A DNA stretch of 35,272 bases from a virus (taxonomy: Duplodnaviria; Caudoviricetes), in IMG/VR virus record IMGVR_UViG_3300042901_001003, positions 1-35,272 of that record, one strand, 5' to 3'. This document shows, one piece after another, positions 10,902 through 31,102 of the stretch (its first letter is position 1; each line of letters opens with the position of its first letter). The notes beneath the pieces are model-generated. The model was not told the origin of the DNA, made no database searches, and saw nothing but the letters and a program-made list of their open reading frames with translations. The translations under genes and the position numbers were made by a program.

Positions 10902-11120
10902 TTATTTTTTAATTAAATTTTTCTCAAAAATACAAAAACTTTCTTTTAAATCGCTTATTGTTGTTTTTTTTCGTTTGTCTTTTTTAATTTCAGGCATATT
11001 TTTAATAACACTATCCCTTATAAATTTTGAAACATTTACTTTATTTTTTCGTAATTGCTTAAAAAATTCCTTCATTTTTTTATCACAAGTGAAAGTTTGT
11101 ATTTCGTTGTAAATTTCCAT
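10902..11120 (-). CDS. Putative ribbon-helix-helix DNA-binding protein
   Basis: QTFTCD strand followed by helix and NVSKFIRDSV, typical of RHH proteins. Confidence 0.5.
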   Translation of the reverse strand: MEIYNEIQTFTCDKKMKEFFKQLRKNKVNVSKFIRDSVIKNMPEIKKDKRKKTTISDLKESFCIFEKNLIKK

Positions 11121-11155
11121 TGTTTATAAGGGTTAATAAAATAAAATAATATTTT

Positions 11156-11185
11156 TTATAGTGTAATGTTGTAGTTATGAGCAAG
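11156..11185 (+). other. Candidate attI-like primary recombination site at left end of cassette array
   Basis: TTATAGTGTAA-TGTTGTAG-TTATGAGCAAG; the G/TTA at 11174 matches cassette 1 right end (CCTGCTCATAAC) and has no preceding hairpin. Confidence 0.55.
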
Positions 11186-11186
11186 T

Positions 11187-11489
11187 TTACTGACCGTCTT
11201 CGTAACGGCTCATTTCAAAACCGTGTGAATAAAAATCCCCAAGTCCACCAGCATCAATAACTATTTTATAATTATAATCTTCGTGAGAAACTACAATTTG
11301 AGTTCCTTCATCATTTTCTATATTTTCAGTTGGTATTCCAACACATTCTATAAAGTGTTGCATACTTTGGTTGTTATCCATACCCATATTATCGTTTTCA
11401 TTGATAATTCGATAGGATGTTTCTCCTTTTGCAAATTCATCAAACATTTGCGTTATCGAATTTGGTATCTCATAAATTTCTGTTTTCAT
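11187..11489 (-). CDS. Cassette 1 hypothetical protein
   Basis: 100 aa acidic ORF filling cassette 11175-11648. Confidence 0.75.
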   Translation of the reverse strand: MKTEIYEIPNSITQMFDEFAKGETSYRIINENDNMGMDNNQSMQHFIECVGIPTENIENDEGTQIVVSHEDYNYKIVIDAGGLGDFYSHGFEMSRYEDGQ

Positions 11490-11520
11490 AATAATTTTTT
11501 GTTTAAATTACACAACCTGC

Positions 11521-11654
11521 TCATAACAGCAATTTGGCAATATGTCGGTTTTGGTCTTTAATTTAATGGTCGTTTTGTACTTGTAGAAATTCGGTATTTC
11601 CGAATGTCTTGGCTTCTTTAATCCGCCACATCGCCAAGTTGCAAAACGTTAACA
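11521..11654 (+). repeat. attC-like site 1
   Basis: TCATAACA-GCAATTTGGC...GCCAAGTTGC-AAAAC-GTTAAC. Confidence 0.85.
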
Positions 11655-11660
11655 AATATA

Positions 11661-12104
11661 TTATTCTGAACTTTGTAGTAATTCAGGATTTTCATAAACA
11701 TTACCTTTAATAAAAGTTGTTTTAATCCAATATCCTAAATCTTTTCTAAGAACTTCATCATTAAATTCTAAGTAAAAGCCAATATGTAAAGCGTGTTTAT
11801 CGTCACAAGGATTTCTGTATGGTCCAAATTTTACAATACCTTTTTTATTTTCATCAAAATGATAAGGCATTATATCCCCTTCGTAAATCTCTTTTTCATT
11901 TTTATCTTTTAAACCTGTGTATTGCATAAACACAATTTCTTTTTGCCATTGTTCAAGCTCTTTTTCTTTATCATAAGTATCTTCATAAGATAATCTATAT
12001 TGAAATGTTTCTGAAATTGCTGAATCAATTTGGGTATCTTCTGGGTATATCATTTCATTAACTACTTGATTTTTTACCCATGCTCTAAATTTAATTTCTC
12101 TCAT
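11661..12104 (-). CDS. Cassette 2: YopX-family protein
   Basis: MREIKFRAW...MQYTGLKDKNEKEIYEGDI...GNVYENPELL signature. Confidence 0.9.
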   Translation of the reverse strand: MREIKFRAWVKNQVVNEMIYPEDTQIDSAISETFQYRLSYEDTYDKEKELEQWQKEIVFMQYTGLKDKNEKEIYEGDIMPYHFDENKKGIVKFGPYRNPCDDKHALHIGFYLEFNDEVLRKDLGYWIKTTFIKGNVYENPELLQSSE

Positions 12105-12136
12105 AATTTTATTTTTTTTATGTTTAAAAATACATT

Positions 12137-12271
12137 TGTTAACAGCGGTTTTGTGCTATTGCCGTTTTCGGCTAAATTTAAAGGTTTGTTTATATCTTCA
12201 AACATTTGTCTTTAATTTAAAAATTAGTGTGTGTTTTTTCGGCAACATCACAAAGCCTGAGAACGTTATGC
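12137..12271 (+). repeat. attC-like site 2
   Basis: TGTTAACA-GCGGTTTTGTG.TATTGCCG...CGGCAACATCACAAAGCC-TGAGAAC-GTTATG. Confidence 0.85.
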
Positions 12272-12277
12272 GTAATG

Positions 12278-13060
12278 TTAAGACAGCACCCTGCTAACCG
12301 AAACATTGTAATAATTTTTATCTTTTTCAATCCCTATGTATTGCCTATTTAACTCTTTACAAGCTAAACCAGTTGTATTACTACCCATACAATTATCCAT
12401 TACTACATCATTTTCATTTGAATAGGTTTTAATTAAGTATTTCATAAGTTCCAAAGGTTTTTGTGTTGGGTGTAATTTGTTTTTTTGGTTCGCATTACTA
12501 ATTTCAAGTATTGATTTTGGATATTTGAAATTGGTTGTATATTCTATTGAAGTTGTATTTTTTCTTGCATAAATATCGCTATCAGCTTCTTTTTTATACT
12601 TCCTTACTTTTTCTCTCTTTTCAAGTTGTGGTATATAAAGCATATTGTTTTTATTACAATTAGCTGTATTTGCTTTTGAAAATATTACAATATCCTCGTG
12701 GTTTTGCATCGGCTTTAATTTAGCAGTTAAAAAATTGCCAGGCTTTACCTTATTCCACACCCAAGTATATTTAAACATCTTTCTATTGCTTATTATCAAT
12801 TCAGTTGTAAATGGTTGCATAGCTGTTAATACTATTGCTCCATTTGGTTTTATAATCCTTTCGTATTGTTCCCAAAGTTTAGGTAAATCAAGTAAGCTAT
12901 CCCACTTTAAACCTGTTACATTATAGGGCAAGTCGCAAAGTATAAGTTGAACACTTGCATCAGCAATGTATGGAAATACATCGAAGCAATCAGCGTGGAC
13001 TAAAACACTACGCATAACATCGGTTTTGCAATAGTGGGGCGGAAGTTGTAAATTCATCAT
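12278..13060 (-). CDS. Cassette 3: orphan DNA methyltransferase (N6_N4_Mtase, beta-class order)
   Basis: Catalytic motif variant CDLPY, then HPTQKP, then SAM-binding DNCMGSNTTG...YIGIEKD. Confidence 0.9.
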   Translation of the reverse strand: MMNLQLPPHYCKTDVMRSVLVHADCFDVFPYIADASVQLILCDLPYNVTGLKWDSLLDLPKLWEQYERIIKPNGAIVLTAMQPFTTELIISNRKMFKYTWVWNKVKPGNFLTAKLKPMQNHEDIVIFSKANTANCNKNNMLYIPQLEKREKVRKYKKEADSDIYARKNTTSIEYTTNFKYPKSILEISNANQKNKLHPTQKPLELMKYLIKTYSNENDVVMDNCMGSNTTGLACKELNRQYIGIEKDKNYYNVSVSRVLS

Positions 13061-13142
13061 TTGTAATTCTATTAAAGTTTAGTTGTGGGTTGAACTTTTG
13101 TGCCTTGAAACCCCACCATCGCAAAGCCCCGATACGTTATAA
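13012..13142 (+). repeat. attC-like site 3 (contains MTase start codon)
   Basis: GCATAACA-TCGGTTTTGCAATAGTGGGG...CCCCACCATCGCAAAGCC-CCGATAC-GTTATA. Confidence 0.85.
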
Positions 13143-13148
13143 GTAACT

Positions 13149-13430
13149 TTATGAAGTAGTTTGCGTACAAATTGAATGAACATCTTTAATCAAATTGTCA
13201 ACAAACCATTTGTTATCTTCACAATCTAAATTGCTCCAACCATAATCAAATTCAAGTTTTTCTTTTATTTGTTCTAAAATTTTTTCGTCAATTTGTTTTT
13301 TACAATCTTCTATACTTTCTCCAGAACCTATTGCAAAATCTTCATCTTCTGAAAAGAAATGCACTTTGCTATTTTTTGGTGCGAATCCTGATTTATCAAA
13401 TTCAAACCAAAAACCTTTATATATTTCCAT
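13149..13430 (-). CDS. Cassette 4 hypothetical protein
   Basis: 93 aa ORF filling cassette 13137-13576. Confidence 0.75.
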   Translation of the reverse strand: MEIYKGFWFEFDKSGFAPKNSKVHFFSEDEDFAIGSGESIEDCKKQIDEKILEQIKEKLEFDYGWSNLDCEDNKWFVDNLIKDVHSICTQTTS

Positions 13431-13450
13431 AGTTTTAATTTAAAAGCTAC

Positions 13451-13582
13451 TTATAACAAATAATTGTATCAATAGCTTGTTTAGTGTTTAATTTAATGTT
13501 TTGCGTTTTTTTGTAATCTTATTTTAATCTGAAACGTATGGTAACTTTAGCACGCTACTAATACAATTATCATACGTTATAA
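13451..13582 (+). repeat. attC-like site 4
   Basis: TTATAACA-AATAATTGTATCAATAGC...GCTACTAATACAATTAT-CATAC-GTTATA. Confidence 0.85.
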
Positions 13583-13589
13583 GAAATAG

Positions 13590-13934
13590 CTACGTTTTCT
13601 TTTCAGTTGAAAATATAAGTTCTAAACCTTTTTTATATTTATTATTACGAATAATAACTTCATTAACCTGTTTGGTAACATTTTCAAGTAAGTAATTTAT
13701 TTTTTCATCTTTGTTATCAGTGTTAATTTCATAAGATAAAATATAAGAATTACATCTTTTATCAAATAAAGTGCTATCTGGATTTTCTATAAATTCTTTA
13801 GCGTTAAATATTTTTAATATTTTCTTTTTTCTATAAGCGTAACAATTTATAAGTTCTTTTTTGTATTGTCCTTGTTCAATAATAAGATAAAATAAATTAC
13901 CATAACAATCATAAGCTTCATATTCTTTTTCCAT
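13590..13934 (-). CDS. Cassette 5 hypothetical protein
   Basis: 114 aa ORF filling cassette 13577-14090. Confidence 0.7.
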   Translation of the reverse strand: MEKEYEAYDCYGNLFYLIIEQGQYKKELINCYAYRKKKILKIFNAKEFIENPDSTLFDKRCNSYILSYEINTDNKDEKINYLLENVTKQVNEVIIRNNKYKKGLELIFSTEKKT

Positions 13935-13965
13935 AATTACTATTTGTGTTTATACCCGCTACTTC

Positions 13966-14096
13966 TTATAACAGCAATTTGTAGAAATGGCTACTATTCG
14001 CAGTTTTGGATTGTTGTTGTTTAATTTATAATTCGTTAATTTTTGTTGTCTATTCGCTTGAATTACGCCACTTCTACAAGTTGCCAAACGTTAACC
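13966..14096 (+). repeat. attC-like site 5
   Basis: TTATAACA-GCAATTTGTAGAAATGGC...GCCACTTCTACAAGTTGC-CAAAC-GTTAAC. Confidence 0.85.
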
Positions 14097-14097
14097 G

Positions 14098-14268
14098 CTA
14101 TTTAAACTCAACTTTGTGGATAATTGAGTCTTTGTAGTGAATTGGAAATTTTAACCTTGCTAAAGTATGATAAGGAAAACCAAACTCTAAACATAGCTTT
14201 TTAAAATTACCTCTTACTATTGGCGGTTCGTTAGGTTGCAAAAGTACTATTGTGTTTTTTCGTTGCAT
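14098..14268 (-). CDS. Cassette 6 ORF c, small putative DNA-binding protein (56 aa, not in ORF track)
   Basis: Manual translation MQRKNTIVLL...GNFKKLCLEFGFPYHTLARLKFP...EFK*; HTH-like middle segment. Confidence 0.6.
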   Translation of the reverse strand: MQRKNTIVLLQPNEPPIVRGNFKKLCLEFGFPYHTLARLKFPIHYKDSIIHKVEFK

Positions 14269-14459
14269 AATTTTTCTTGGTATAAAATCTTTAATTTTTT
14301 ATGATAGTCTTTATATGATTTTGGTTTATCACATTTTTCTAATGGAGAAATATATTCATATTCGTAACCTAAAACCATTTGAGATAGTTTTTCTGTTTTG
14401 TATTCTAAATCACAATATTGATTTTTATTATTTGCTCTGCAATTTTGACATTTTTTCAT
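14247..14459 (-). CDS. Cassette 6 ORF b, small Cys-containing protein
   Basis: 70 aa; CxxC...C...C pattern. Confidence 0.65.
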   Translation of the reverse strand: MKKCQNCRANNKNQYCDLEYKTEKLSQMVLGYEYEYISPLEKCDKPKSYKDYHKKLKILYQEKLCNEKTQ

Positions 14460-14495
14460 AAAAATATGCGTTACAGTCGCATCCCTGTTTTTTTT

Positions 14496-14663
14496 TTATT
14501 TTAGTTCAACATTATATTTTTCTATCCATTTGGTAACTCCGTTTTTTGTAAGCTGAACTGAGTTTTTAGTTTCTTTTTCAACTACTAAAGTTTCTCCTAT
14601 TGATGCTCTAAATAATGATTTGTAAGAACCTTTTAAAACATTTTTTGTGAAAGTTGCTGTCAT
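14496..14663 (-). CDS. Cassette 6 ORF a (55 aa, not in ORF track)
   Basis: Manual translation MTATFTKNVLKGSYK...NVELK*; lies just downstream of the cassette-internal promoter. Confidence 0.65.
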   Translation of the reverse strand: MTATFTKNVLKGSYKSLFRASIGETLVVEKETKNSVQLTKNGVTKWIEKYNVELK

Positions 14664-14693
14664 AATTTCTATTTTTAGTTGTTATTTCTTTTA

Positions 14694-14724
14694 CAAATAT
14701 ACGACTAATTTTGATACTACCAAA
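14694..14724 (-). promoter_or_regulatory. Bacteroidota sigma-A promoter inside cassette 6
   Basis: Minus strand TTTG-N19-TATATTTG, an exact match to the -33/-7 consensus. Confidence 0.8.
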
Positions 14725-14763
14725 TAAAATTACAATTATTTTTAAAATTTATGTAAAAACAGC

Positions 14764-14898
14764 GGTTAACAGTGGTTTTATTCAATAGCGGTTTCGGTGT
14801 TTAATCTAAAAAATAGTGTGTATTTGTAAACTTTAGGCATAACCGAAATATAGTTTTTTACTTTTCCGCTACTGAAATAAAGCCACCATACGTTATAA
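14764..14898 (+). repeat. attC-like site 6
   Basis: GGTTAACA-GTGGTTTTATTCAATAGCGG...CCGCTACTGAAATAAAGCCAC-CATAC-GTTATA. Confidence 0.85.
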
Positions 14899-15096
14899 CT
14901 CATTTTGGCGAACCCTTATCAAACGACTTTTTTTGTCGAAAATCACATTTTCTTTTGGTATAATTTTAACCTCACTAATTAATATTTTACAAGGTTCATC
15001 TAAATACCAAATGTATTCAGGGTCTGTTTCTGAAATCATACCAACTTCACAATATTTTGGGTTAATTCCTTTCGGTTGAAAATATACTGTATTCAT
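14893..15096 (-). CDS. Cassette 7 ORF b, hypothetical
   Basis: 67 aa; stop codon is the TTA of the G/TTA core. Confidence 0.7.
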   Translation of the reverse strand: MNTVYFQPKGINPKYCEVGMISETDPEYIWYLDEPCKILISEVKIIPKENVIFDKKSRLIRVRQNEL

Positions 15097-15263
15097 AATA
15101 TTTCAGATTTTGAAGTTATCATTTTAAAGTAATTCAAGTGTATTTGAGCAGCAGCATAATATTTTAAAGCTGTACTAAATTTTCTTTCTTTTCTGAATAT
15201 TTTAGCTAAATATTTGTTTCTGTAATATTCTTTTTCGCTGTGTTCTTCAATTAAATTTTCCAT
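15093..15263 (-). CDS. Cassette 7 ORF a (56 aa, not in ORF track)
   Basis: Manual translation MENLIEEHSEKEYY...SEIL*; ATGA overlap with next ORF. Confidence 0.6.
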   Translation of the reverse strand: MENLIEEHSEKEYYRNKYLAKIFRKERKFSTALKYYAAAQIHLNYFKMITSKSEIL

Positions 15264-15275
15264 AATAAAAACGAG

Positions 15276-15300
15276 TTATAACAGCAATTACACGCTATTT
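15276..15300 (+). repeat. Truncated attC-like site 7 (left arm only)
   Basis: TTATAACA-GCAATTACACGCTATT with no matching right arm or CGTTA before the next ORF. Confidence 0.7.
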
Positions 15301-15548
15301 TAAGAAGCGACAACTACAATCATATCATTTTCAATTCTTCTAATAGCTTGCTCAACACTTAAATTAGTATTTACATAGTCTAGTTGTAACCAAAAAGGAA
15401 AATACCATTTCCATTTTTGGACTTCAAACCCGCCATAATTATCTCTAATTATTCTATATTTAATAATTTTAAATCCAATAAAAAAAACAGCAGGTAACAC
15501 AGGTTTTGTGCTATTGCTTGGCTCGGTGTTTTCTGAATGTTTAGTCAT
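15300..15548 (-). CDS. Cassette 8 hypothetical protein (cassette left end missing)
   Basis: 82 aa; N-terminus encoded within attC-like site 8. Confidence 0.65.
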   Translation of the reverse strand: MTKHSENTEPSNSTKPVLPAVFFIGFKIIKYRIIRDNYGGFEVQKWKWYFPFWLQLDYVNTNLSVEQAIRRIENDMIVVVAS

Positions 15549-15625
15549 AATCTGTAATTTTTAGTGTTTAAATTAAAATTTGTTTTATTTTTATGCAACA
15601 GGCACAAAGCCCGAAAACGTTATGC
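15492..15625 (+). repeat. attC-like site 8
   Basis: AGGTAACA-CAGGTTTTGTGCTATTGC...GCAACAGGCACAAAGCC-CGAAAAC-GTTATG. Confidence 0.85.
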
Positions 15626-15859
15626 CTCATTGCCCGAAAGAATAGAAACAATCTCTTTTCCTCTTTCAACACAATGATTTATTTCTTCCCATCCGTGACC
15701 ATCGTAATTTTTTTGATGCAATAATATTTCGGATGCTTCAATCAATTTTTTCATAACGTCTTTTAAACACCAAGCGTTATCCATTGCTAAAACAGATTGC
15801 AACGAAGGCATAACAGCCGTTTCAAGCAATTGCGGGATTTGTTTTTTATCTTCAATCAT
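15620..15859 (-). CDS. Cassette 9 hypothetical protein
   Basis: 79 aa; starts within attC-like site 9 and stops at the core TTA. Confidence 0.7.
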   Translation of the reverse strand: MIEDKKQIPQLLETAVMPSLQSVLAMDNAWCLKDVMKKLIEASEILLHQKNYDGHGWEEINHCVERGKEIVSILSGNEA

Positions 15860-15944
15860 CGGTCTTTAATTTAAGTTTGGTTATTATTTGTTATTTTTGG
15901 GTATTAAACCCCCGCAACTGCGTGAAGCGGCGGGAGCGTTAGCA
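15808..15944 (+). repeat. attC-like site 9
   Basis: GCATAACA-GCCGTTTCAAGCAATTGCGGG...CCCGCAACTGCGTGAAGCGGC-GGGAGC-GTTAGC. Confidence 0.85.
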
Positions 15945-15950
15945 GTAATG

Positions 15951-16373
15951 CTAAAGTGAATCTAACAAATCTTGTTTTGTAATTGTAAACTTATCCTTGT
16001 AATTTTCATAGTAAAGTTTAGGTAATAAATCTATAATTTTTTTGAAATCAATATTTTCATCTAAAATTTTAGTTATTTTTTCATACTCATCATCAGAATT
16101 ATTTTCTGAAAATCTATCATCATCAATTCTTTTAGTTATCCATTGTGAAGAAAAATTAATAATTGGTTCTAATTTAGAGCCTTTGCACTCAAAAACTGCA
16201 TCTTCTTCTAATTCTCTAACTTGTTCTTCTTCTCCGTCAAAAACTTTATAGATAAAATCCTCTAAATCTGTATAAAATTCACCATCTTCAAAAAAGTTTT
16301 CCATAAATCGCGAAGCACTACCGCTAACATCGGTTTTGTCTAATTCCTTAGAATTGTTTGTATCTGAAATCAT
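15951..16373 (-). CDS. Cassette 10 acidic hypothetical protein
   Basis: 140 aa, very D/E-rich; upstream start lies within attC-like site 10 (an internal Met start is also possible). Confidence 0.75.
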   Translation of the reverse strand: MISDTNNSKELDKTDVSGSASRFMENFFEDGEFYTDLEDFIYKVFDGEEEQVRELEEDAVFECKGSKLEPIINFSSQWITKRIDDDRFSENNSDDEYEKITKILDENIDFKKIIDLLPKLYYENYKDKFTITKQDLLDSL

Positions 16374-16456
16374 AATGTTTAATTTAAATATTGGTACTTG
16401 TTTGTTGTGTATAGTTTTAAATCATCGGCACTAGACAAAGCCGAGAACCGTTATAA
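16322..16456 (+). repeat. attC-like site 10
   Basis: CGCTAACA-TCGGTTTTGTCTA...TAGACAAAGCCGA-GAACC-GTTATA. Confidence 0.85.
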
Positions 16457-16462
16457 AACAGT

Positions 16463-16735
16463 TTAACCGACATCGTGCATATCATCAACTATCTTTTGTT
16501 CTTGTGTTCTTTTTGATAAATCAACTATTTCAACCCATTCAAAACCATCAAACAAGGTGTCGTGTCTATTATCATCATGGTTTTTTCTTAGATGTTTAGG
16601 TTTTGAATAAGCTTTTAATTGACCATTAACCTCTTCAAAATAATCTCCTTCTACATAATCTATCGCATGAGGAACATATCTTATTGCTGTTCCTTTTCTG
16701 TAACCTCTTTTTTTTGCTTCTTTAATTAAGTCCAT
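16463..16735 (-). CDS. Cassette 11 hypothetical protein
   Basis: 90 aa; LIKEAKKRGY..G...W.EIV pattern. Confidence 0.75.
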   Translation of the reverse strand: MDLIKEAKKRGYRKGTAIRYVPHAIDYVEGDYFEEVNGQLKAYSKPKHLRKNHDDNRHDTLFDGFEWVEIVDLSKRTQEQKIVDDMHDVG

Positions 16736-16748
16736 AATAAAACCGATT

Positions 16749-16872
16749 TTATAACAATGGTTTGTAGCAAAACTACTTTAGGCTACCTTTCCATCGTTGG
16801 TTAATAATTCTTTTGTGTTTGTTGTGTGTGTTTATAATTCTACGTTCTGCTACAAGCCATCGAACGTTAGCG
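16749..16872 (+). repeat. attC-like site 11
   Basis: TTATAACA-ATGGTTTGTAGCA...TGCTACAAGCCAT-CGAAC-GTTAGC. Confidence 0.85.
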
Positions 16873-16888
16873 GTAATACTAAGAACCA

Positions 16889-17194
16889 CTAGGCGTTTTT
16901 ACGGATAAAATTCAACATTTCAGAACCGTGTTTAAAACAATCACAGCCTCTATTTTCGTCAAAAGGTTTTGTGCTTGGTACAGTATTTCCATTTAATTTA
17001 TATACAGGACAACTACTATTGCAACTTGAATGTTCACTATCGCAAATTTCGTACAATTCAGTACTTAAATTTTCTTCCGATATAGCACCAGTTCTTGCAT
17101 ATTCCATTACAGATTTAGGTGTCAAATCAGAATACTCAATATCTTTATCTGTTACTTTTTCGCCTTTTGCTAATTTGATAATTAATTCTTCCAT
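16889..17194 (-). CDS. Cassette 12 Cys-rich hypothetical protein
   Basis: 101 aa; C...H..C...CP...CDC cluster. Confidence 0.75.
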   Translation of the reverse strand: MEELIIKLAKGEKVTDKDIEYSDLTPKSVMEYARTGAISEENLSTELYEICDSEHSSCNSSCPVYKLNGNTVPSTKPFDENRGCDCFKHGSEMLNFIRKNA

Positions 17195-17240
17195 TTTAAT
17201 AAAATTTAATTGACAAACCCTGTGATTAAAAAAGTACTAC

Positions 17241-17373
17241 CGCTAACAAGGGTTTGCCAAAATGGTGGCGATAGTGCTATATTTGAACTTTTGTGCTTTT
17301 TATTGGCTTTTGTGCTAAACTGAAACATTCTGCTTTCTATCCCACCACTTCGGCAAGCCCTAATCCGTTAGCA
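17241..17373 (+). repeat. attC-like site 12
   Basis: CGCTAACA-AGGGTTTGCCAAAATGGTGG...CCACCACTTCGGCAAGCCCT-AATCC-GTTAGC. Confidence 0.85.
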
Positions 17374-17667
17374 AATAGTTTTAGAACACTCGTCTAAAAC
17401 AGCCACTAAAAGATGTTTGTTTAAATCTGAATTTAACGGCACAATTGGTTCTGATGGACAAATAGTTTTATACTGCTTTTCAAATACTGAAAGTACTTTC
17501 TCTACATCAATTTCAGGATATTTGTTTTTTAGCATATCTGTAAATGAAGTTCTTATTCCTATAATAATATTGTTTTCTTTCAAAAGCTCTTTGTGTTGTT
17601 CTTTTGTTAGGTTTTCTTCTTTTGATTTTACATAGCATTGATGTGCTGTAAGTTTTATTTTTTCCAT
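17368..17667 (-). CDS. Cassette 13 hypothetical protein
   Basis: ATG start at 17667 (MEKIKL...) preferred over the track's TTG at 17688; stop is the core TTA. Confidence 0.7.
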   Translation of the reverse strand: MEKIKLTAHQCYVKSKEENLTKEQHKELLKENNIIIGIRTSFTDMLKNKYPEIDVEKVLSVFEKQYKTICPSEPIVPLNSDLNKHLLVAVLDECSKTIC

Positions 17668-17679
17668 AATAAACCGATT

Positions 17680-17813
17680 TGCTAACAACTACTATATTCA
17701 ATAGCGGTCATTGGGTTAAATTCAACAATTTGTTTGTACTTGGTTTTTTCAGTCTTAAACCGAAACTTATTTTTGTATATTTAGCAACATCGTGTAGCCC
17801 CTAAACGTTAGTA
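17680..17813 (+). repeat. attC-like site 13 (arms poorly matched, probable hybrid)
   Basis: TGCTAACA-ACTACTATATTCAATAGCGG...GCAACATCGTGTAGCCC-CTAAAC-GTTAGT. Confidence 0.75.
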
Positions 17814-17826
17814 GCAAGTGATACTT

Positions 17827-18069
17827 TTAGTCATTGTAGAAAATTTCAGTATAATCAGCATCTTTACCACCACACCACCAACTTTTTACATTATCTATCG
17901 TTGTATCTTCAAGCCAACAAGAACGGAAATCAAAAGTCCAAACACTTCTTTTGCCAATCCATTTTCCATCAATTAATTTCCAAACAACATTGTTGGCATC
18001 TAACATACAACCCCCAACATTTCTTACAATTTCCTCGCAAAAGATGTTTGATATTTTATTGTAAACCAT
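17827..18069 (-). CDS. Cassette 14 Trp-rich hypothetical protein
   Basis: 80 aa ORF filling cassette 17808-18190. Confidence 0.7.
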   Translation of the reverse strand: MVYNKISNIFCEEIVRNVGGCMLDANNVVWKLIDGKWIGKRSVWTFDFRSCWLEDTTIDNVKSWWCGGKDADYTEIFYND

Positions 18070-18093
18070 TTCCGTTTAATTTACCGCACCAGC

Positions 18094-18196
18094 CACTAAC
18101 AGCGGTTTGGTGCAATTATTTTGCCTATTAAATTTATCTAAAGCTCGAAGTATCTGCAAGGCAAAATAACAGACACCAAGCGGCAAAACGTTAATC
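18094..18196 (+). repeat. attC-like site 14 (short, 103 bp)
   Basis: CACTAACA-GCGGTTTGGTG.AATTATTTTGCCT...AGGCAAAATAACAGACACCAAGCGGC-AAAAC-GTTAAT. Confidence 0.85.
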
Positions 18197-18400
18197 TTTA
18201 CTATAATCTAATTCAACTTTACAACCACTTTCTTCAAACTCTAATTTTACTTTTAATAACTTAGCGTATGTAACAGCTGGCGCCTGTGGATTTTTACTTT
18301 TAATCTGTAACGCTAATTTTGATGGTGTTACACCTACCATTTTTGCAAAGGTGTTATTATTCTTTGCGGTTTCTGAAATTAATTTTTGTAGTATGTTCAT
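18191..18400 (-). CDS. Small HTH (XRE/Cro-like) regulator, first gene of leftward operon
   Basis: NNTFAKMVGVTPSKLALQI HTH-like segment; start at 18400 preferred because 18424 overlaps the promoter. Confidence 0.6.
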   Translation of the reverse strand: MNILQKLISETAKNNNTFAKMVGVTPSKLALQIKSKNPQAPAVTYAKLLKVKLEFEESGCKVELDYSKD

Positions 18401-18421
18401 TTGTCTTATAATTTTATAATG

Positions 18422-18429
18422 CAAAGATA
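18422..18429 (-). promoter_or_regulatory. Leftward promoter -7 element
   Basis: Minus strand TATCTTTG (TAnnTTTG) about 20 nt upstream of the ATG at 18400. Confidence 0.7.
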
Positions 18430-18486
18430 TATAAATATTTTAAATAAAAAAGTATAAATTAATTTTTTTTATAAATATTTTCCTTT

Positions 18487-25337: not shown

Positions 25338-26382
25338 AAAAATTAAAGTAGATAAACCGCAAAAGCTTGATTTTTCAAACGTTGAGAAATACAGAATAAG
25401 ACCAACAGACCAAATTCCAAAACCTGAAACAGTATTGCAAGTAGGAGGGAAAATTATATCCACTCGTAAAAATATTTTTGGAATTACAGGAAAAGCAAAA
25501 GTAGGTAAGTCTTTTTTAATGGCACTTATTAATGCTACTGTGCTTAAAAAAGGCGAAATGGGTATGTTATCTTCTTACTTGCCAAAAGGCAAAGACAAAA
25601 TTATATACATAGATACTGAGCAATCAGATTATCACGTTGCATTAGCTATTCAGAGAGTTAAAAAAATGGTAGAAGATTATAAAATTGATAATCTTTTAAT
25701 GTATGCATTCGATGCCGTTAATACTGATATGCGTCGAGCTTATACGGAATATCTAATACAAAATACTGAAGGTGTTGGGCTTGTTATTATCGATGGAATT
25801 GCTGACTTAGTAAAATCAATTAACGATGAAATTTTAGCTACTGAAATGTCAGACACTCTTCGAAAGTGGGCAACAATTAACGACGTTGCAATAGGTTACG
25901 TTTTGCACCAAAACCCAAGTGATAGCACTAAAATGCGTGGTCACTTAGGTACTATTTTAATGAATAAGTCAGAAACTGTATTGCAAATTTCTTCAAGTAA
26001 AGAAGATGATAGTATTAAAATAGTCGAAGCATTACAAACACGTAACGCAAAACCTGATAATTTTTCATTTAGAATTAATGATGGTATGCCTGAAATTATG
26101 GAACAATGCTATGAACTTCCAAAGGCTGGACGTAAGGCGCGAAAAACTTTAAGTAATATAGAAAGATACAATGTACTATTAGAGTGTTACAGAGGACTTA
26201 AAAAGAGCCAAAATTTAGGGTATAGCGTATTAATTGAAAAGGTAAGAGAGAATACAACCGATATGGGTGATAATGCAATTAAGCAATTTTTAACATACGC
26301 AAAAGAGATGAATTGGATAAATCAAGACGTACCAAAAGGCGGTTATTTCTTACAAGATTTTAGCGATGGTTTAATGGTTTAA
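25330..26382 (+). CDS. RecA-fold SF4-like replicative helicase (AAA_25/RepA-like)
   Basis: Walker A GKAKVGKS, YIDTEQ, Walker B VIIDG, VLHQN and RGHLG. Confidence 0.82.
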   Translation: MFEKIKVDKPQKLDFSNVEKYRIRPTDQIPKPETVLQVGGKIISTRKNIFGITGKAKVGKSFLMALINATVLKKGEMGMLSSYLPKGKDKIIYIDTEQSDYHVALAIQRVKKMVEDYKIDNLLMYAFDAVNTDMRRAYTEYLIQNTEGVGLVIIDGIADLVKSINDEILATEMSDTLRKWATINDVAIGYVLHQNPSDSTKMRGHLGTILMNKSETVLQISSSKEDDSIKIVEALQTRNAKPDNFSFRINDGMPEIMEQCYELPKAGRKARKTLSNIERYNVLLECYRGLKKSQNLGYSVLIEKVRENTTDMGDNAIKQFLTYAKEMNWINQDVPKGGYFLQDFSDGLMV

Positions 26383-26660
26383 CAATTATTTTAATTAAAC
26401 CGATGAATTATTAAACCATCAGCAAAAAACAATTATTAAACCATCATAAGCCCTTATAAACATTGACTTTTTTATTAAATTTTAGTTGATGGTTTAAAAA
26501 TAGAAAATAATTATTAAACCATTAAAAAAAGCATTTTATCGTATTTATTTGTATTTAGTCGATGGTTTAATGGTTTAAAAATAGAAAAAACACATGGTTT
26601 ATGATGGTTTAATAATACCCCTATAAGGGGGTATTTTAAACCTAAACCATTAAACCATTA
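26366..26660. repeat. Cluster of ATGGTTTA/TAAACCAT repeats, candidate replication origin
   Basis: About a dozen copies in both orientations in a non-coding gap, plus the inverted repeat AATACCCC/GGGGTATT at 26614-26635. Confidence 0.7.
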
Positions 26661-26673
26661 AAAAAGTTAATAA

Positions 26674-26829
26674 ATGAAAAAACAAACTAAACCTAAACAA
26701 CCAACATTTCAAGAATTCGAAATTGAAAAGCGTAAACTTTACGTATCAAAAGAAAATCCAACACGATTAAAAGAAATTATTAAAAAATTAGATTATATTT
26801 ATTACGGTATTAAAAATATAACACTATGA
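26674..26829 (+). CDS. Hypothetical protein (51 aa)
   Basis: Manual translation MKKQTKPKQP...; ATGA coupled to next ORF. Confidence 0.5.
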   Translation: MKKQTKPKQPTFQEFEIEKRKLYVSKENPTRLKEIIKKLDYIYYGIKNITL

Positions 26830-26993
26830 CACCTCACATCGTTTACTTTGAATTATTTGGTAAAAAAATGAAAACCGAAGTATTAGCTAAAGACGCTAAT
26901 CACGCTAAAGAAATTGTAAAATCTAAAATTATATTCCATAAAGTAGAAAATAAAACAATAGATTTTTTAAAAGATATCTTTGGAATGAAATAA
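26826..26993 (+). CDS. Hypothetical protein (55 aa)
   Basis: Manual translation MTPHIVYFELFGKKMK...DIFGMK*. Confidence 0.6.
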   Translation: MTPHIVYFELFGKKMKTEVLAKDANHAKEIVKSKIIFHKVENKTIDFLKDIFGMK

Positions 26994-26998
26994 TTTTG

Positions 26999-27006
26999 TA
27001 TATTTG
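26999..27006 (+). promoter_or_regulatory. Promoter -7 element upstream of terminase small subunit
   Basis: TATATTTG. Confidence 0.55.
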
Positions 27007-27088
27007 TAGAAAATAGCAACGTTCTTACGTGTTTTAAGGTTTAAATTTAAATCATGTTTAGCTATTCATGGTTTTTTAAATTAAAGTT

Positions 27089-27499
27089 ATGGCAAGACCA
27101 AGCGAATATAATATAGAAATATGTATCTTAATTTGTGAAGAAATTGCAAAAGGTGGAAACATAATGCAAGTACTTGATTCATGTACTAATTATCCAAGTT
27201 GGAGTACTTTCAGAAGATGGAAAAGAGATAATGAAGAATTACGAACGTTGTATATAAACTCACAACAAGATAAAGCAGAAGCACTTGAAAAAGAAATGGA
27301 CGATTATCGGTCTATGTTGTTAGCTAAAGAAATAGACGCATCTACTTATAACACATTAGTACAGACTTTAAAATGGAAAATGTCAAAGTATTATGCTAAA
27401 ATGTATGGTGACAAAACAGATATTACAAGCGGTGGAGAAAAGATACAAACAGCTCCTACTTCGATACAAGTTGAAATAACTAAACCAAATGAAGATTAA
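27089..27499 (+). CDS. terS: Terminase small subunit (Sf6 gp1-like)
   Basis: MARPSEY...ICEEIA.G...PS.ST..RW...KW.MSK...YGDK.DITS.GE. Confidence 0.85.
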   Translation: MARPSEYNIEICILICEEIAKGGNIMQVLDSCTNYPSWSTFRRWKRDNEELRTLYINSQQDKAEALEKEMDDYRSMLLAKEIDASTYNTLVQTLKWKMSKYYAKMYGDKTDITSGGEKIQTAPTSIQVEITKPNED

Positions 27500-27514
27500 T
27501 TAAAATTAATTTTG

Positions 27515-27522
27515 TATATTTG
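27515..27522 (+). promoter_or_regulatory. Promoter -7 element upstream of GIY-YIG gene
   Basis: TATATTTG directly upstream of the structured leader. Confidence 0.65.
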
Positions 27523-27526
27523 TGTT

Positions 27527-27607
27527 TGTATTGTCTCAGATACACATAAAAACATTATAAAAAATCCAACTATGATAAGACTGAGACCTTTGATTAGTTG
27601 GTTTTTT
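27527..27607 (+). ncRNA. Putative structured leader RNA, copy 2
   Basis: TGTAT/ATACA stem with loop GTCTCAG; second stem CCAACTA/TAGTTGG with loop CTGAGAC; T tract follows. Confidence 0.55.
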
Positions 27608-27612
27608 CATTT

Positions 27613-28386
27613 ATGATAGGAATATATAAAATTACAAGTCCAACAAAAAAAGTTTATATTGGTCAAAGTATAAACATTGAAAAAAGAATAAAGGATTATT
27701 CTAATTTAAAAAACTGCATTGAACAACCAAAATTATATAATTCGTTTTTAAAACACAAAGTAGAAAATCATATTTTTGAAATAATATGTGAATGTGAAAT
27801 AACAAAACTTAATGAATTAGAAAGATATTATCAAGAATTGTATAACGTTATTCAAACAGGATTAAATTGTGTTTTAACAAATACACAAGATAGATGCGGA
27901 TTTTTAAGTAAAGAAACAAAATTAAAAATTTCAAACTCAAAAAAAGGACAAGGTAAAGGAATTAAAAAAAGTATTGAATTTAAACAGTCAGTTTCAAAAA
28001 ATAATAAATTAAGAGTTTGGAAACAAGAATCTAAATTAAAATTATCTAAAAGTTTAAAAGGAAAATTTAAAGGTGAGCTAAACCCATTTTTTGGAAAAAC
28101 ACACACTAAAGAATCTTTATTAAAAATGAGTGAATCATCAAAAAACAGAAAACCACCAATGCTAGGAAAAAAACACTCAATAGAAACAAAAAACAAAATA
28201 AAAGAAAAAAATAAATTAAAAACATTTGGTAAAAATTCTAATGCTAAAATAGTTTTAGATATTTCAAATGGTATTTATTATGAGTGTGTAAAAGAGTTAG
28301 CAATTATATTAAATATTAATAGACATACTTTGTCAAGAAAAATAAGAGGTGACAGAAAAAATAATACTAATTATATTTACGTATGA
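27613..28386 (+). CDS. GIY-YIG homing endonuclease with NUMOD3-like repeats
   Basis: GIYKIT...VYIGQS...R...E; NPFFGKTHTKES and GKKHSIETK repeats; C-terminal HTH; ATG at 27613. Confidence 0.92.
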   Translation: MIGIYKITSPTKKVYIGQSINIEKRIKDYSNLKNCIEQPKLYNSFLKHKVENHIFEIICECEITKLNELERYYQELYNVIQTGLNCVLTNTQDRCGFLSKETKLKISNSKKGQGKGIKKSIEFKQSVSKNNKLRVWKQESKLKLSKSLKGKFKGELNPFFGKTHTKESLLKMSESSKNRKPPMLGKKHSIETKNKIKEKNKLKTFGKNSNAKIVLDISNGIYYECVKELAIILNINRHTLSRKIRGDRKNNTNYIYV

Positions 28387-29705
28387 AAGCTACAATAGTA
28401 TTTGAGAAAACATGGGGAGCTATAAACGCAAAGAAAGAAGACGGAAGCAGAAAGTATAAATATATTATTCATACTGGTTCTTCACGTTCAAGTAAAACAT
28501 ATTCTATACTTCAAACACATTGGCTAATTTGTTTAACAGAACCAAATACAAGAGTTTCTATTTGGCGTGAAACAAAAGCAGATTGTAAAATGACAATTTT
28601 AGCTGATTTAAAAAAAGCAGTACCAACATTTCCAAATAATGAAGTAGTAACTTTTAATAAAACTGAAAGTGTTTATACTTTTCCAAATGGAAGTACAATT
28701 GAATTTATGGGAGGCGACGAAGAAAATAGAGTACATGGGTTTCAAGGAAATGTAGCACATTTAAACGAGCCTTATAAGTTTGGTGAAGATGCATTTAATC
28801 AAATAGATATGCGAACAAGTAACTACGTAATTATTGATTGGAATCCAAAAAGTAAACATTTTATTGATGATATTAGTAAAAGAGATAATGCTATTGTTAT
28901 TCATTCTACATATAAAGACAACCCCTTTTGCCCAATTGAACAAAGATTAAAAATTGAAAGCTATTTATCAGTAAAATATACTGATGTAGTAGAAAGCAAT
29001 TTAATTGACTTATCAAACGCATACAATTATAATTTTGATAGTAATATATTAAACTTTACAGACAAACAATTAAAAGAACTTAAAAAAGCATTACACAATG
29101 AAAGTCAAAATACTTCAAACGATTATCTTCATTTAGTTTACGCAAAAGGTTTAAAAGCCGAGAAGCCTAACAGAATTTTTAAAGGGTGGAAAATAATAGA
29201 AGATAAAGAGTTTGAAAATTTACCTTATCCTTATTATTTTGGTTTAGATTTTGGAATTTCAGCTCCTACAGCATTGGTAAAAATGAAAACTGATGGAGAT
29301 GGAACTTACTTTTTAAAAGAGCTATTGTATAAACCACTTAATCAAATGAGTGGCACTTTATCTGATGAGTTAGAAAGTTTAGGAATACCAAAACATATTG
29401 AAATTATTTGTGATAGTGGTAACGAATTGAATCAAGGCGAAGGACAAAAGCTACGTAATAGCGGTTATAATATTATATTCGCTCAAAAGGGGCAAGGCTC
29501 GGTAGTTTCAGCAATTGAAACAATGCAAAAATCAACTATCTATTATACTAAAACAAGTTACAACCTTGAGGAAAATTACGAAAATTACTCATGGAAAATT
29601 TATCAAGGAATACAGCTTGATATTCCAGAAGAAACAAGAGAAGATTTAATAGATGCTTCAAAGTATGTAATTAAATGGTATTCCAAAACAAGATATTTAA
29701 CATAA
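28383..29705 (+). CDS. terL: Terminase large subunit (PBSX/Terminase_3-like)
   Basis: Walker A GSSRSSKT, Walker B variant AHLNE, DWNP, STYKDNPF, GLDFG and D.IDA. Confidence 0.92.
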   Translation: MKATIVFEKTWGAINAKKEDGSRKYKYIIHTGSSRSSKTYSILQTHWLICLTEPNTRVSIWRETKADCKMTILADLKKAVPTFPNNEVVTFNKTESVYTFPNGSTIEFMGGDEENRVHGFQGNVAHLNEPYKFGEDAFNQIDMRTSNYVIIDWNPKSKHFIDDISKRDNAIVIHSTYKDNPFCPIEQRLKIESYLSVKYTDVVESNLIDLSNAYNYNFDSNILNFTDKQLKELKKALHNESQNTSNDYLHLVYAKGLKAEKPNRIFKGWKIIEDKEFENLPYPYYFGLDFGISAPTALVKMKTDGDGTYFLKELLYKPLNQMSGTLSDELESLGIPKHIEIICDSGNELNQGEGQKLRNSGYNIIFAQKGQGSVVSAIETMQKSTIYYTKTSYNLEENYENYSWKIYQGIQLDIPEETREDLIDASKYVIKWYSKTRYLT

Positions 29706-29721
29706 AATAATTAATAAAATG

Positions 29722-29750
29722 TTTGCGTATTAATTATTTTTGTATATTTG
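29722..29750 (+). promoter_or_regulatory. Promoter upstream of portal
   Basis: TTTG-N17-TATATTTG. Confidence 0.7.
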
Positions 29751-29783
29751 TAAAAATTAACGATGTGAATCGTAGATAAAAAT

Positions 29784-30992
29784 ATGGTAGAAAAATCATT
29801 TTCTTTATTCGGTAGGGAGCTTTTTCGTGTTGAAAGAAACCGATTAGGCGAGTTTTCATATTCTTTTTTAAATGGAGAAGATTTTAACCATTCTACTAAA
29901 TACCTTGAAATGTCATTAAGCAACCCTGTTTTAATGACTATTATTTCTTTACGTTCTAAAATATATTCTCAAATGAGAATAACACATTTAGACGCAAGCG
30001 GAAAAGAAATAAAAAATAGTCCTTACATTAAATTATTAAATCAACCTAACTACTTTCAAAGCGGTCAGGATTTCTTATTTCAGCAAATGTGGTTTTTATC
30101 AGCAACAGGTAACGACTTAATTTACCAAAAGAAAGCGTTTGCAAATGAATTACCAAAAGCTATTTATAATTTAGTACCAAGTGAAATTGATTTTAATGAG
30201 GTTCATAAATTAAATAAGTTTATTGTAACTCAAAAAGATATTAAAGCATATTCAGAAAAGATAATAAAATATACTTTAGACAATACAACTTTTGAAATAC
30301 CTTTAAGCGATTTAGTACCATTATATGACTTATCTAATGGACTTACAAATAATGCGTTTATGCGTTCAGAAAGTCGTGTAAAGGCAGTGCATAAAGTTTT
30401 ACAGAATATAGACCAAAATATAAAGTCTAAACATACTAACTTACAGATGTCGCAAAAGTACATAGGTAAGAATCAAAGTAACGGAAACGAGGCACAAATA
30501 CAGCAACAAGACAGAAATAGTATAGAGCGTTCAATTTCTTCTAATTCTTTGGTTTTAACTAATGCTAATGTTGATGTTAAGCATTTAGTTAGCGACATGA
30601 AACGTTTGTATTTAGATGAGCAATTTGCTGACGATGCCAACAAAGTACTTTTAGCTTTTGAGCTAAACAAAAACGTTTTAAATTATTTTGCTAAGGACTC
30701 AACATTTGAAAATCAAAATCAAGGCGTTATATCATGGGTTCAAAGTTCTATTCAAACAAGTGCAGACGATTTAATGAATAGCTTATCTTCTCAATGGGGT
30801 TTATTAGAAAGAAACGAAAAGTTAGTAGCAAGTTATGAGCATTTACCAATTATGCAAAGCGTTGTTAATGATAAAATAAAGTCATTTACTGAAATGCAAA
30901 ACGCTATTAAAATAGGTTTAGAAAATGGAACTTTAACAACAGAAGAAGCAAAGAAAATGAGTGATGAATTTAGACTAAAATTAAAGTTATGA
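29784..30992 (+). CDS. Portal protein (HK97-like)
   Basis: LLNQPNYFQ...FL...GN, STFENQ motifs; located between terL and protease. Confidence 0.85.
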   Translation: MVEKSFSLFGRELFRVERNRLGEFSYSFLNGEDFNHSTKYLEMSLSNPVLMTIISLRSKIYSQMRITHLDASGKEIKNSPYIKLLNQPNYFQSGQDFLFQQMWFLSATGNDLIYQKKAFANELPKAIYNLVPSEIDFNEVHKLNKFIVTQKDIKAYSEKIIKYTLDNTTFEIPLSDLVPLYDLSNGLTNNAFMRSESRVKAVHKVLQNIDQNIKSKHTNLQMSQKYIGKNQSNGNEAQIQQQDRNSIERSISSNSLVLTNANVDVKHLVSDMKRLYLDEQFADDANKVLLAFELNKNVLNYFAKDSTFENQNQGVISWVQSSIQTSADDLMNSLSSQWGLLERNEKLVASYEHLPIMQSVVNDKIKSFTEMQNAIKIGLENGTLTTEEAKKMSDEFRLKLKL

Positions 30993-31102
30993 TAATCAAA
31001 GAGCAAAAAGATAAATTAAAAGAGATTGCTAAAAGAACTGATAACGAAAGTTTAAAGCAAGATATTAAAGATAAATTAACTAATAAAGAAGTAAAAAAAT
31101 GA
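30989..31102 (+). CDS. Small basic protein (37 aa)
   Basis: Manual translation; ATGA overlaps at both ends. Confidence 0.5.
   Translation: MIIKEQKDKLKEIAKRTDNESLKQDIKDKLTNKEVKK

Follow-up and report, generated by a model that had tools for sequence, protein, structure and literature searches.

How did fourteen small gene units, every gene on the minus strand, come to form an array in a tailed phage, and do they move? The array (units C1–C14) lies in IMG/VR record IMGVR_UViG_3300042901_001003 (Duplodnaviria; Caudoviricetes), whose whole length of 35,272 nt is the stretch analysed here (the window). An original prediction held that the two ends of each unit are complementary to each other rather than to the neighbouring unit, and took this as the footprint of circular intermediates. 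Our analysis makes it probable that the units are integron-like cassettes, which relatives gain, lose and reorder as whole units at G/TT, and that they are likely moved as circles by a tyrosine recombinase lacking the IntI insertion, probably supplied by the host.

Cassette ends are complementary to each other

The end pairs quoted in the original prediction were all found at their positions. For C1–C7 and C9–C14, in order, the left ends (G of GTT) are at 11174, 11648, 12265, 13136, 13576, 14090, 14892, 15619, 15938, 16450, 16866, 17367 and 17807, and the right ends (C of AAC) at 11527, 12143, 13018, 13457, 13972, 14770, 15282, 15814, 16328, 16755, 17247, 17686 and 18100. In 13 of the 14 units the left end is complementary to the unit's own right end; C8 has lost its left end and is absent from the self-match set. 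The ends were compared all against all over positions 5–15 only (11 free positions), the shared GTTA being excluded. Mean complementarity was 9.0 of 11 for self pairs, 3.8 for non-self pairs and 2.8 for in-array neighbours (11 neighbour pairs). No permutation among 200,000 equalled the self total of 117 (maximum 102), so that the proposed contrast between self and non-self pairs was borne out. The best partner of a left end was its own right end in 12 of 13 rows without gaps (one tie) and in all 13 with gaps, and 9 or more matches of 11 were found for 10 of the 13 cassettes, compared with 1 of 748 GTTA..TAAC pairs elsewhere in the contig. Since each left end closes the preceding hairpin, the left-end positions are independent of the end match.

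The pairing runs for 15 nt and then falls to background, with position 15 paired in 9 of 13 cassettes and position 16 in 2 of 13. Within it, position 11 is never Watson-Crick paired (0/13). The left base there is A in all 13, and the fixed A/G combination becomes a T-G wobble when the minus strand is folded; C9, C11 and C13 have one extra base ahead of it, which is the single-base indel that had been claimed for these three. In all 12 cases, circle junctions built by script folded better than the sites as they stand in the array (mean −5.5 kcal/mol), and in 11 of 12 the better fold was that of the minus strand, which is the coding strand. The better folding follows from the complementarity of the ends and is therefore no independent evidence. 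Together, the matched ends likely reflect circular intermediates, as judged from sequence comparison.

Each cassette has the layout TT, 15-nt box, minus-strand gene or genes, complementary 15-nt box, hairpin body of about 120 nt, and G. There are 13 intact hairpin sites of 95–129 nt, each standing after its gene on the plus strand. Pairing between their arms is highest when these are offset by 4 (107 of 156 positions paired; nine other offsets give 31–65): on the left 5 nt lie between AAC and the inner box, on the right 9 nt between the inner box and GTT, which leaves a 4-nt bulge at the crossover. Extrahelical L-box bases are absent in the window, the arms of the 13 sites, selected with no demand on register, pairing ungapped. 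The A at arm position 15, which is invariant and not Watson-Crick paired, may take the role of one extrahelical base.

At the left edge of the array is an attI-like insertion site (11145..11176, plus strand), with its G/TT crossover between 11174 and 11175 and no hairpin on its left side. A near-identical copy is found in nine Baltic phages, where it is followed by six different first units.

Relatives differ by whole units at G/TT

The best GenBank matches of the array are Baltic Flavobacterium siphophages, and 50 of 167 records are Flavobacterium phages. The nine Baltic isolates are among these 50 records; 17 arrays were compared, and all listed breakpoints come from the nine. Exact matches ended on the right 4–12 nt past the start of GTTA in 40 of 44 cases and on the left 0–13 nt ahead of the GTTA start in 38 of 41, these contexts being pairwise comparisons and not independent events. 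The hairpin body therefore goes with the left-hand gene and the crossover lies at G/TT. On this point the original prediction, by which the matched ends fix cassette boundaries and polarity, is upheld: relatives break at G/TT, and the body moves with the gene to its left.

The nine Baltic phages hold 29 distinct units, of which 19 are shared, and six different first units occur at the one conserved site. Their maps show clean presence or absence for units 34, 31 and 28–29, and one unit that is internal in four phages comes first in a fifth. The right end of the array is conserved across the Baltic phages, as expected if insertion occurs at the left. Few whole cassettes are common to the window and these phages. 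In a contig from lake-water run X7 the C11 site continues directly into the right flank; the 1324 nt missing between them are exactly C12–C14. The bases left of the crossover vary between sites, which would disfavour a two-strand exchange with spacer homology.

The same sites occur in Bacteroidota chromosomes and other phages

A search pattern derived from the sites of the window retrieved at least 133 GTDB stretches (about 1500 estimated) and at least 132 IMG/VR stretches (about 550 estimated). Long flanks were available for 80 bacterial and 80 viral loci, and orientations were counted on unique sequences. The 80 GTDB stretches listed are mostly from Bacteroidota. Of 118 bacterial inter-site units, 89 carry forward genes, 6 reversed genes and 23 were unscored; among 124 viral units, 95 are reversed, 3 forward and 26 unscored. 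Restricting the count to units with matched ends gave 73 forward, 5 reversed and 16 unscored of 94 in bacteria, and 73 reversed and 2 forward of 75 in viruses.

The 15-nt box is present in both sets. None of the 94 bacterial or 75 viral units has the same base at position 11 of its two ends (A/G in 86% and 85%, respectively), and A occupies arm position 15 in 256 of 258 bacterial and 244 of 246 viral sites; both positions were left free in the detector. Arm positions 7–11 pair ungapped at 90–100% in the 258 bacterial and 246 viral sites, a figure to be read with the detector's demand for register, which bulged sites would escape. The same asymmetry thus accompanies genes on opposite strands, and therefore tracks the polarity of the site and not the transcribed strand. 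The idea that phages carry host cassettes flipped by top-strand recombination was rejected, because top-strand insertion would turn the hairpin body round along with the gene, whereas phage and host bodies point the same way.

As for a common cargo pool, proteins of the window and viral cassettes match cassettes of the bacterial set only in locus L109. Its reversed methyltransferase cassettes look phage-derived. Both L109 and L114 hold reversed cassettes of the phage type, and L091 matches the C6 site region; L109 and L091 are contigs of Saccharibacteria metagenome-assembled genomes. All three loci are probably misbinned or integrated phage DNA. In the bacterial arrays L161, L164 and L130, what we take to be a Bacteroidota promoter-like motif stands just ahead of the attI-like GTT, a likely equivalent of Pc. 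No Pc-like promoter motif was seen in the phage attI-like sites inspected.

A short tyrosine recombinase adjoins related arrays

None of the 56 proteins of the contig is a recombinase (Pfam, PHROGs), and tblastn with two family members (E up to 1) gave no match to the contig, locus L018 or the complete genome of snork9-1. Related arrays in bacteria and phages have a tyrosine recombinase at the left end. Among 80 viral loci with a homologue, 55 have at least 1.2 kb upstream; co-polar sites lie upstream in 40 of the 55 and downstream in none, and an attI-like site, 32–53 nt from the recombinase start and resembling that of the window, is found in 36, in 34 of which the first gene is reversed. 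The corresponding place in the window is taken by a 72-amino-acid open reading frame (ORF; 10902..11120, minus strand), which starts 54 nt from the attI-like crossover and has no family match in the Pfam, PHROGs, recombinase-profile and PADLOC scans.

The array recombinases lack the additional domain of integron integrases. Their GKG-to-RHS distance is 71–79 residues, compared with 117 in Shewanella IntI, or about 40 residues fewer. All 10 recombinases analysed match TIGR02249 in two pieces and under its cut-off. They align in two pieces to VchIntIA, and continuously and ungapped to archaeal XerA and to XerD. NF040815 (archaeal XerA) is the top NCBIfam match for all 10, with 2 above its cut-off, and none passes the XerC/XerD family cut-off. 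In a tree the Xer-like paralogues of the hosts form a separate clade; as long branches meet, the tree places the array recombinases neither as sister to IntI nor apart from it.

Family members at 40–48% identity are encoded in 4 of 5 Flavobacterium genomes with such sites, including Baltic strain LMO8, and supply of the enzyme in trans is thus plausible. The recombinase for this array is probably supplied by the host. The family varies in size: the members in L434 and L435 (Flavobacterium, including LMO8) reach about 580 amino acids and carry a long N-terminal extension, against 347–397 or about 280 for other host members and about 267 for phage members.

A further member may be the 'integrase' of Polaribacter phage Leef_1 (MT732473, about 26100–29000; locus L445), which has a short catalytic region and a GTT about 55 nt upstream. 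Three self-matching units there have A at position 11, and two of them the A/G pair. This 'integrase', read as a sign of temperate potential in the published account, in the part drawn on here (PMC8776804), may be a cassette recombinase. In Ingeline_1, a clear array is absent beside the integrase, with one weak pair lacking A/G.

Proposed mechanism and alternative explanations

The pathway that we propose builds on what was observed: where the units begin and end and how they are oriented, their variation as whole units, the structure of the sites, the reversed genes and, in relatives, a neighbouring enzyme gene. Once a circle is closed, the two boxes and the body would form a single hairpin of the minus (bottom) strand, each half-site holding one T-G wobble and a 4-nt bulge lying next to the crossover. 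This shape would be what the recombinase recognises when it exchanges one strand with a double-stranded attI-like site or with another hairpin. By analogy with IntI, as described in the parts of two reviews used here (PMC5027507, PMC4792948), the junction would be resolved by replication. New first cassettes appear at the attI-like left end, and the reversed genes would be read leftwards from a putative phage promoter near 18422 at the right end. The phage could so vary its methyltransferases and other small accessory genes. The methyltransferase would serve in anti-restriction, which fits the Baltic phage study as far as the portion consulted extends (PMC7077304).

Several points weigh against this pathway. 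No circle joint was present in the contigs of 4 runs (of 24 runs listed), and contigs drop rare forms. The X7 joint lacking C12–C14 is a single contig of depth 5 with 34 letters on its short side, and a second X7 joint, 17241 to 17681, is not at G/TT. A recombinase gene was present in just 9 of the 131 bacterial loci with the site pattern and 7 of the 131 viral ones (80 of each with long flanks), and no array start was seen within 420 nt upstream of the recombinase in four Flavobacterium loci. The tie between array and recombinase is adjacency only, and how an enzyme without I2 avoids a second strand exchange lacks an explanation. The contig is incomplete, beginning inside the tape-measure gene, and its host, likely Flavobacterium as deduced from its relatives, carries some uncertainty.

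An ordinary cluster of attC sites lacking integron-integrases (CALIN), with classical cassettes moved by a classical IntI in the host or a co-infecting element and with an odd site shape that is only taxonomic variation, would account for the AAC...G/TT logic, the bottom-strand skew and the attI-like end, all of which are integron-like. Phage CALINs have been published, with 5 of 6 tested sites active with IntI1 according to the part of that study used here (PMC9892861), and certain attC sites recombine with no extrahelical bases, as stated in the review text consulted (PMC5027507). We nevertheless find this explanation unlikely: the arms pair free of L-box bulges and carry their 4-nt excess on the crossover side, and the neighbouring recombinases fall under the TIGR02249 cut-off and lack the insertion (10/10). 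That cut-off was passed in none of 5 Flavobacterium genomes, in a scan where 14 control genomes gave no positive. P12002L_attC1, the sole tested site of similar build, failed with IntI1 (n=1, the likeness being judged by eye).

Two other accounts seem less probable again. One, with a slim chance, keeps the same cassettes and enzyme family and replaces the single-strand pathway by Xer-like double-strand recombination with two strand exchanges, the palindromes being four binding sites. The ungapped alignment of the enzyme to archaeal XerA and XerD suits it, and the arms of Xer or Cre sites are about as long as the 15-nt boxes. IntI itself retains double-strand activity, on the evidence of the review text used (PMC4792948). 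The arms covary within a site while differing between sites, though, the mismatches favour G-T wobbles on one strand, and the spacers left of the crossover differ from site to site. The other, to which we give a marginally slimmer chance, regards the hairpins as transcription or RNA-processing signals, the matched ends as RNA stems, and the swapping of genes as homologous or phage annealing recombination. Stem-loops with T4-type promoters are a model for gene exchange between similar hairpins; here the better-folding strand in the phage is the mRNA strand, a YqaJ exonuclease and an SSB are among the phage's own proteins, and blocks of units are common to several phages. What speaks against it is that the asymmetry is unchanged in bacterial arrays, whose genes are on the opposite strand, that breakpoints lie at G/TT between dissimilar sites, and that the leftmost insertion site has no hairpin. 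The promoter motif is also rare on the coding strand of the sites (1/12 in the window, 6/210 in viral sites), and promoters within sites were ruled out by this rarity. Integron-like cassettes moved by an insertion-less recombinase thus remain our preferred explanation.

Identical ends surround unrelated genes

Among 292 phage cassettes there are 156 pairs with an identical 15-nt left end, 120 of them with no interior homology; chance would give 3.2 pairs, an expectation that assumes independent positions and is hence too low. The left end of C4 also occurs in 6 other phage cassettes of differing interior. For the C7 end, identity on the left stops at 15 nt in 6 of 7 other cassettes, and the seventh carries the same gene. 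Site bodies are at least 85% identical in 25 of 88 same-end pairs with different cargo, compared with 1 of 399 random pairs, with close medians (0.63 against 0.57); part of the sharing is thus module reuse, and part may reflect a small repertoire of boxes. Of 114 bacterial ends, 14 recur in phages, mostly flanking genes of opposite direction. The stop codon of the ORF lies inside the left box in 215 of 263 reversed phage cassettes.

The inference in the original prediction that each unit arrived independently by site-specific recombination was overstated. C7 and C8 are fused, C12–C14 are absent as a block in a variant, stretches of several units are common to Baltic phages, and unrelated genes are bounded by identical 15-nt ends. 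The last of these means that matched ends are the design of a mobile unit and do not record separate arrivals.

The reused ends may point to how cassettes are made. A broader proposal, which we advance tentatively and hold to be somewhat short of probable, is that phages maintain a reversed-cassette pool of their own and make new members by placing unrelated genes inside hairpin modules whose 15-nt ends are used again, leaving a visible sign of cassette genesis, and that Bacteroidota and their phages run an integron without I2, with an Xer-sized recombinase reading the 4-nt bulge and two symmetric T-G wobbles; such a system would be the living counterpart of a pre-I2 stage of IntI.

Contig, cassettes and flanks

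The contig, which is the whole viral record, encodes terminase, portal, capsid, tail, holin, amidase, helicase, YqaJ and SSB proteins (Pfam and PHROGs, 56 proteins), in a gene order like that of snork9-1. Its sampled words are 96–100% present in six lake-water runs. A GIY-YIG/NUMOD3 homing endonuclease gene lies at 27598–28386, between the small and large terminase genes. The cargo of the array comprises one methyltransferase and one YopX-family protein, the remainder mostly having no family (Pfam, PHROGs, PADLOC); the methyltransferase is the sole PADLOC match (1/19), and the window has no Rfam match.

Cassette coordinates are given on the plus strand, and all genes are on the minus strand. 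C1 (11175..11648) has a 100-amino-acid ORF at 11187–11489 and its site at 11525–11650. C2 (11649..12265) encodes a YopX-family phage protein (11661–12104; PF09643, E=3e-20; site 12141–12267), and C3 (12266..13136) an N6/N4 DNA methyltransferase (12278–13060; PF01555, E=3e-32; PADLOC MTase_II, E=1e-72; site 13016–13138). A 93-amino-acid ORF occupies C4 (13137..13576; ORF 13149–13430; site 13455–13578), and one of 114 amino acids C5 (13577..14090; ORF 13590–13934; site 13970–14092). C6 (14091..14892; site 14768–14894) holds three small ORFs (14098–14268, 14247–14459 and 14496–14663) and, near 14694, a motif that is presumably a promoter of the Bacteroidota type. Its start and first ORF are present in 8 of the 9 Baltic phages, with a 56-amino-acid protein 77% identical, unlike other cargo, and C6 may be a retained regulator.

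C7 (14893..15299) has ORFs at 14893–15096 and 15093–15263, and its site is cut after 17 nt of the left arm. C8 (15294..15619; site 15496–15621) has an 82-amino-acid ORF (15300–15548) that starts in its own site loop, an alternative early Met being absent. A deletion over the 6-nt microhomology at 15294–15299 would have fused the two. Locus L009 carries the first gene of C7 (94% amino-acid identity) as a one-gene cassette with an intact site. Insertion of C8 at the C7 L box was also considered and was dropped, as L009 shows that the stretch in question is C7's own arm. The second, 56-amino-acid ORF of C7 (15093–15263) lies between the start of the first gene and the right box, flanked by 5-nt direct repeats; L009 (7925–8150) has the ends and first gene of C7 and lacks this ORF, which indicates gain or loss of a gene within a cassette.

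C9 (15620..15938; site 15812–15940) has a 79-amino-acid ORF with its stop in the core, C10 (15939..16450; site 16326–16452) an ORF at 15951–16373, C11 (16451..16866; site 16753–16868) a 90-amino-acid ORF at 16463–16735, and C12 (16867..17367; site 17245–17369) a 101-amino-acid ORF at 16889–17194. The ORF of C13 (17368..17807) ends at 17368 with its stop in the core. The site of this cassette (17684–17809) has poorly matched arms; its left arm is like that of site 6 and its right arm unmatched to it, possibly marking a hybrid. C14 (17808..18190), the farthest from the insertion site, has an 80-amino-acid ORF (17827–18069), a short site (18098–18192) and a self-match of 7 of 11. The right flank (18191..18440, minus strand) contains a small ORF (18191–18424) and, near 18422, what we assume to be a promoter motif of the Bacteroidota type pointing leftwards into the array.

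Comparison with known systems

The nearest published arrays are the phage CALINs of Qi et al. 2023 (PMC9892861), which likewise include an integrase-less cassette array in a tailed phage and carry DNA methyltransferases. Polaribacter phage P12002L of that study resembles the window in the build of one site and in having units whose two ends match each other. The sections of the paper used here treat the sites as attC for IntI, and leave reversed genes, 15-nt ends, swapping among isolates and a non-IntI recombinase undescribed; 'Flavobacterium' is absent from the portion of its supplement examined. At the P12002L locus (about 29150–31100; L441), attC2 of Qi et al. is at the left end of the array, where an attI-like site is expected. 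P12002L attC1, which is of the Bacteroidota-type build, is the one that failed with IntI1; the working site lies, in our reading, where the attI-like end would be placed.

The Baltic Lillamyvirus, Muminvirus and Hattifnattvirus phages (Nilsson et al. 2020) share genome layout, attI-like site and site type with the window, and in the parts consulted their variable methyltransferase content is tied to plating efficiency on Flavobacterium LMO6 (PMC7077304). 'Integron' and 'cassette' occur 0 times in the main text of that paper. Cassette exchange, if true, would explain these variable methyltransferase sets, and a flavophage 'integrase' need not imply a temperate life style. An integron-like subgroup of tyrosine recombinases in which the catalytic-domain insertion is not fully conserved was reported by Smyshlyaev et al. 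2021 (PMC8138268), where the text drawn on here leaves cassette arrays and site structure of the insertion-less members undescribed. Our literature search, in which subscription journals were thinly covered, found no paper describing this variant.

The single-strand recombination of integron integrases has been credited to the I2 helix (PMC7790495, the part used here), and a cassette system under an enzyme lacking I2, if true, would test that idea. A reliable model of cassette genesis was lacking as of 2016, according to the portion of the review consulted (PMC4792948), and identical ends around unrelated genes offer a handle on it. Cultured phage-host pairs (the Baltic phages on Flavobacterium LMO6/LMO9, and Polaribacter phage Leef_1) make both ideas testable.

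Integron cassettes themselves, as described in the review text used above (PMC5027507), have R' complementary to R'', an AAC/GTT crossover, a bottom-strand hairpin and an insertion site at one end, and in the loci related to the window a recombinase adjoins. The array accordingly has the integron features of own-end complementarity, whole-unit exchange at G/TT (by comparison of relatives) and an attI-like end. It departs from integrons in three defining features: extrahelical bases, gene orientation and the IntI enzyme. Classical attC sites have two or three extrahelical bases in the L'' arm, where the sites here have a 4-nt bulge and fixed wobbles; integron genes are on the top strand, upstream of their attC, and read from Pc, whereas the genes in the window are all on the bottom strand and viral units are 73 reversed to 2 forward; and IntI has the additional I2 domain, which leaves the array recombinases here about 40 residues shorter. 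Self-complementary ends alone are a textbook integron trait. What is unusual is their length of 15 nt, compared with a 7-nt end consensus in integrons (PMC5027507, same portion), together with the reversed genes and the non-IntI recombinase.

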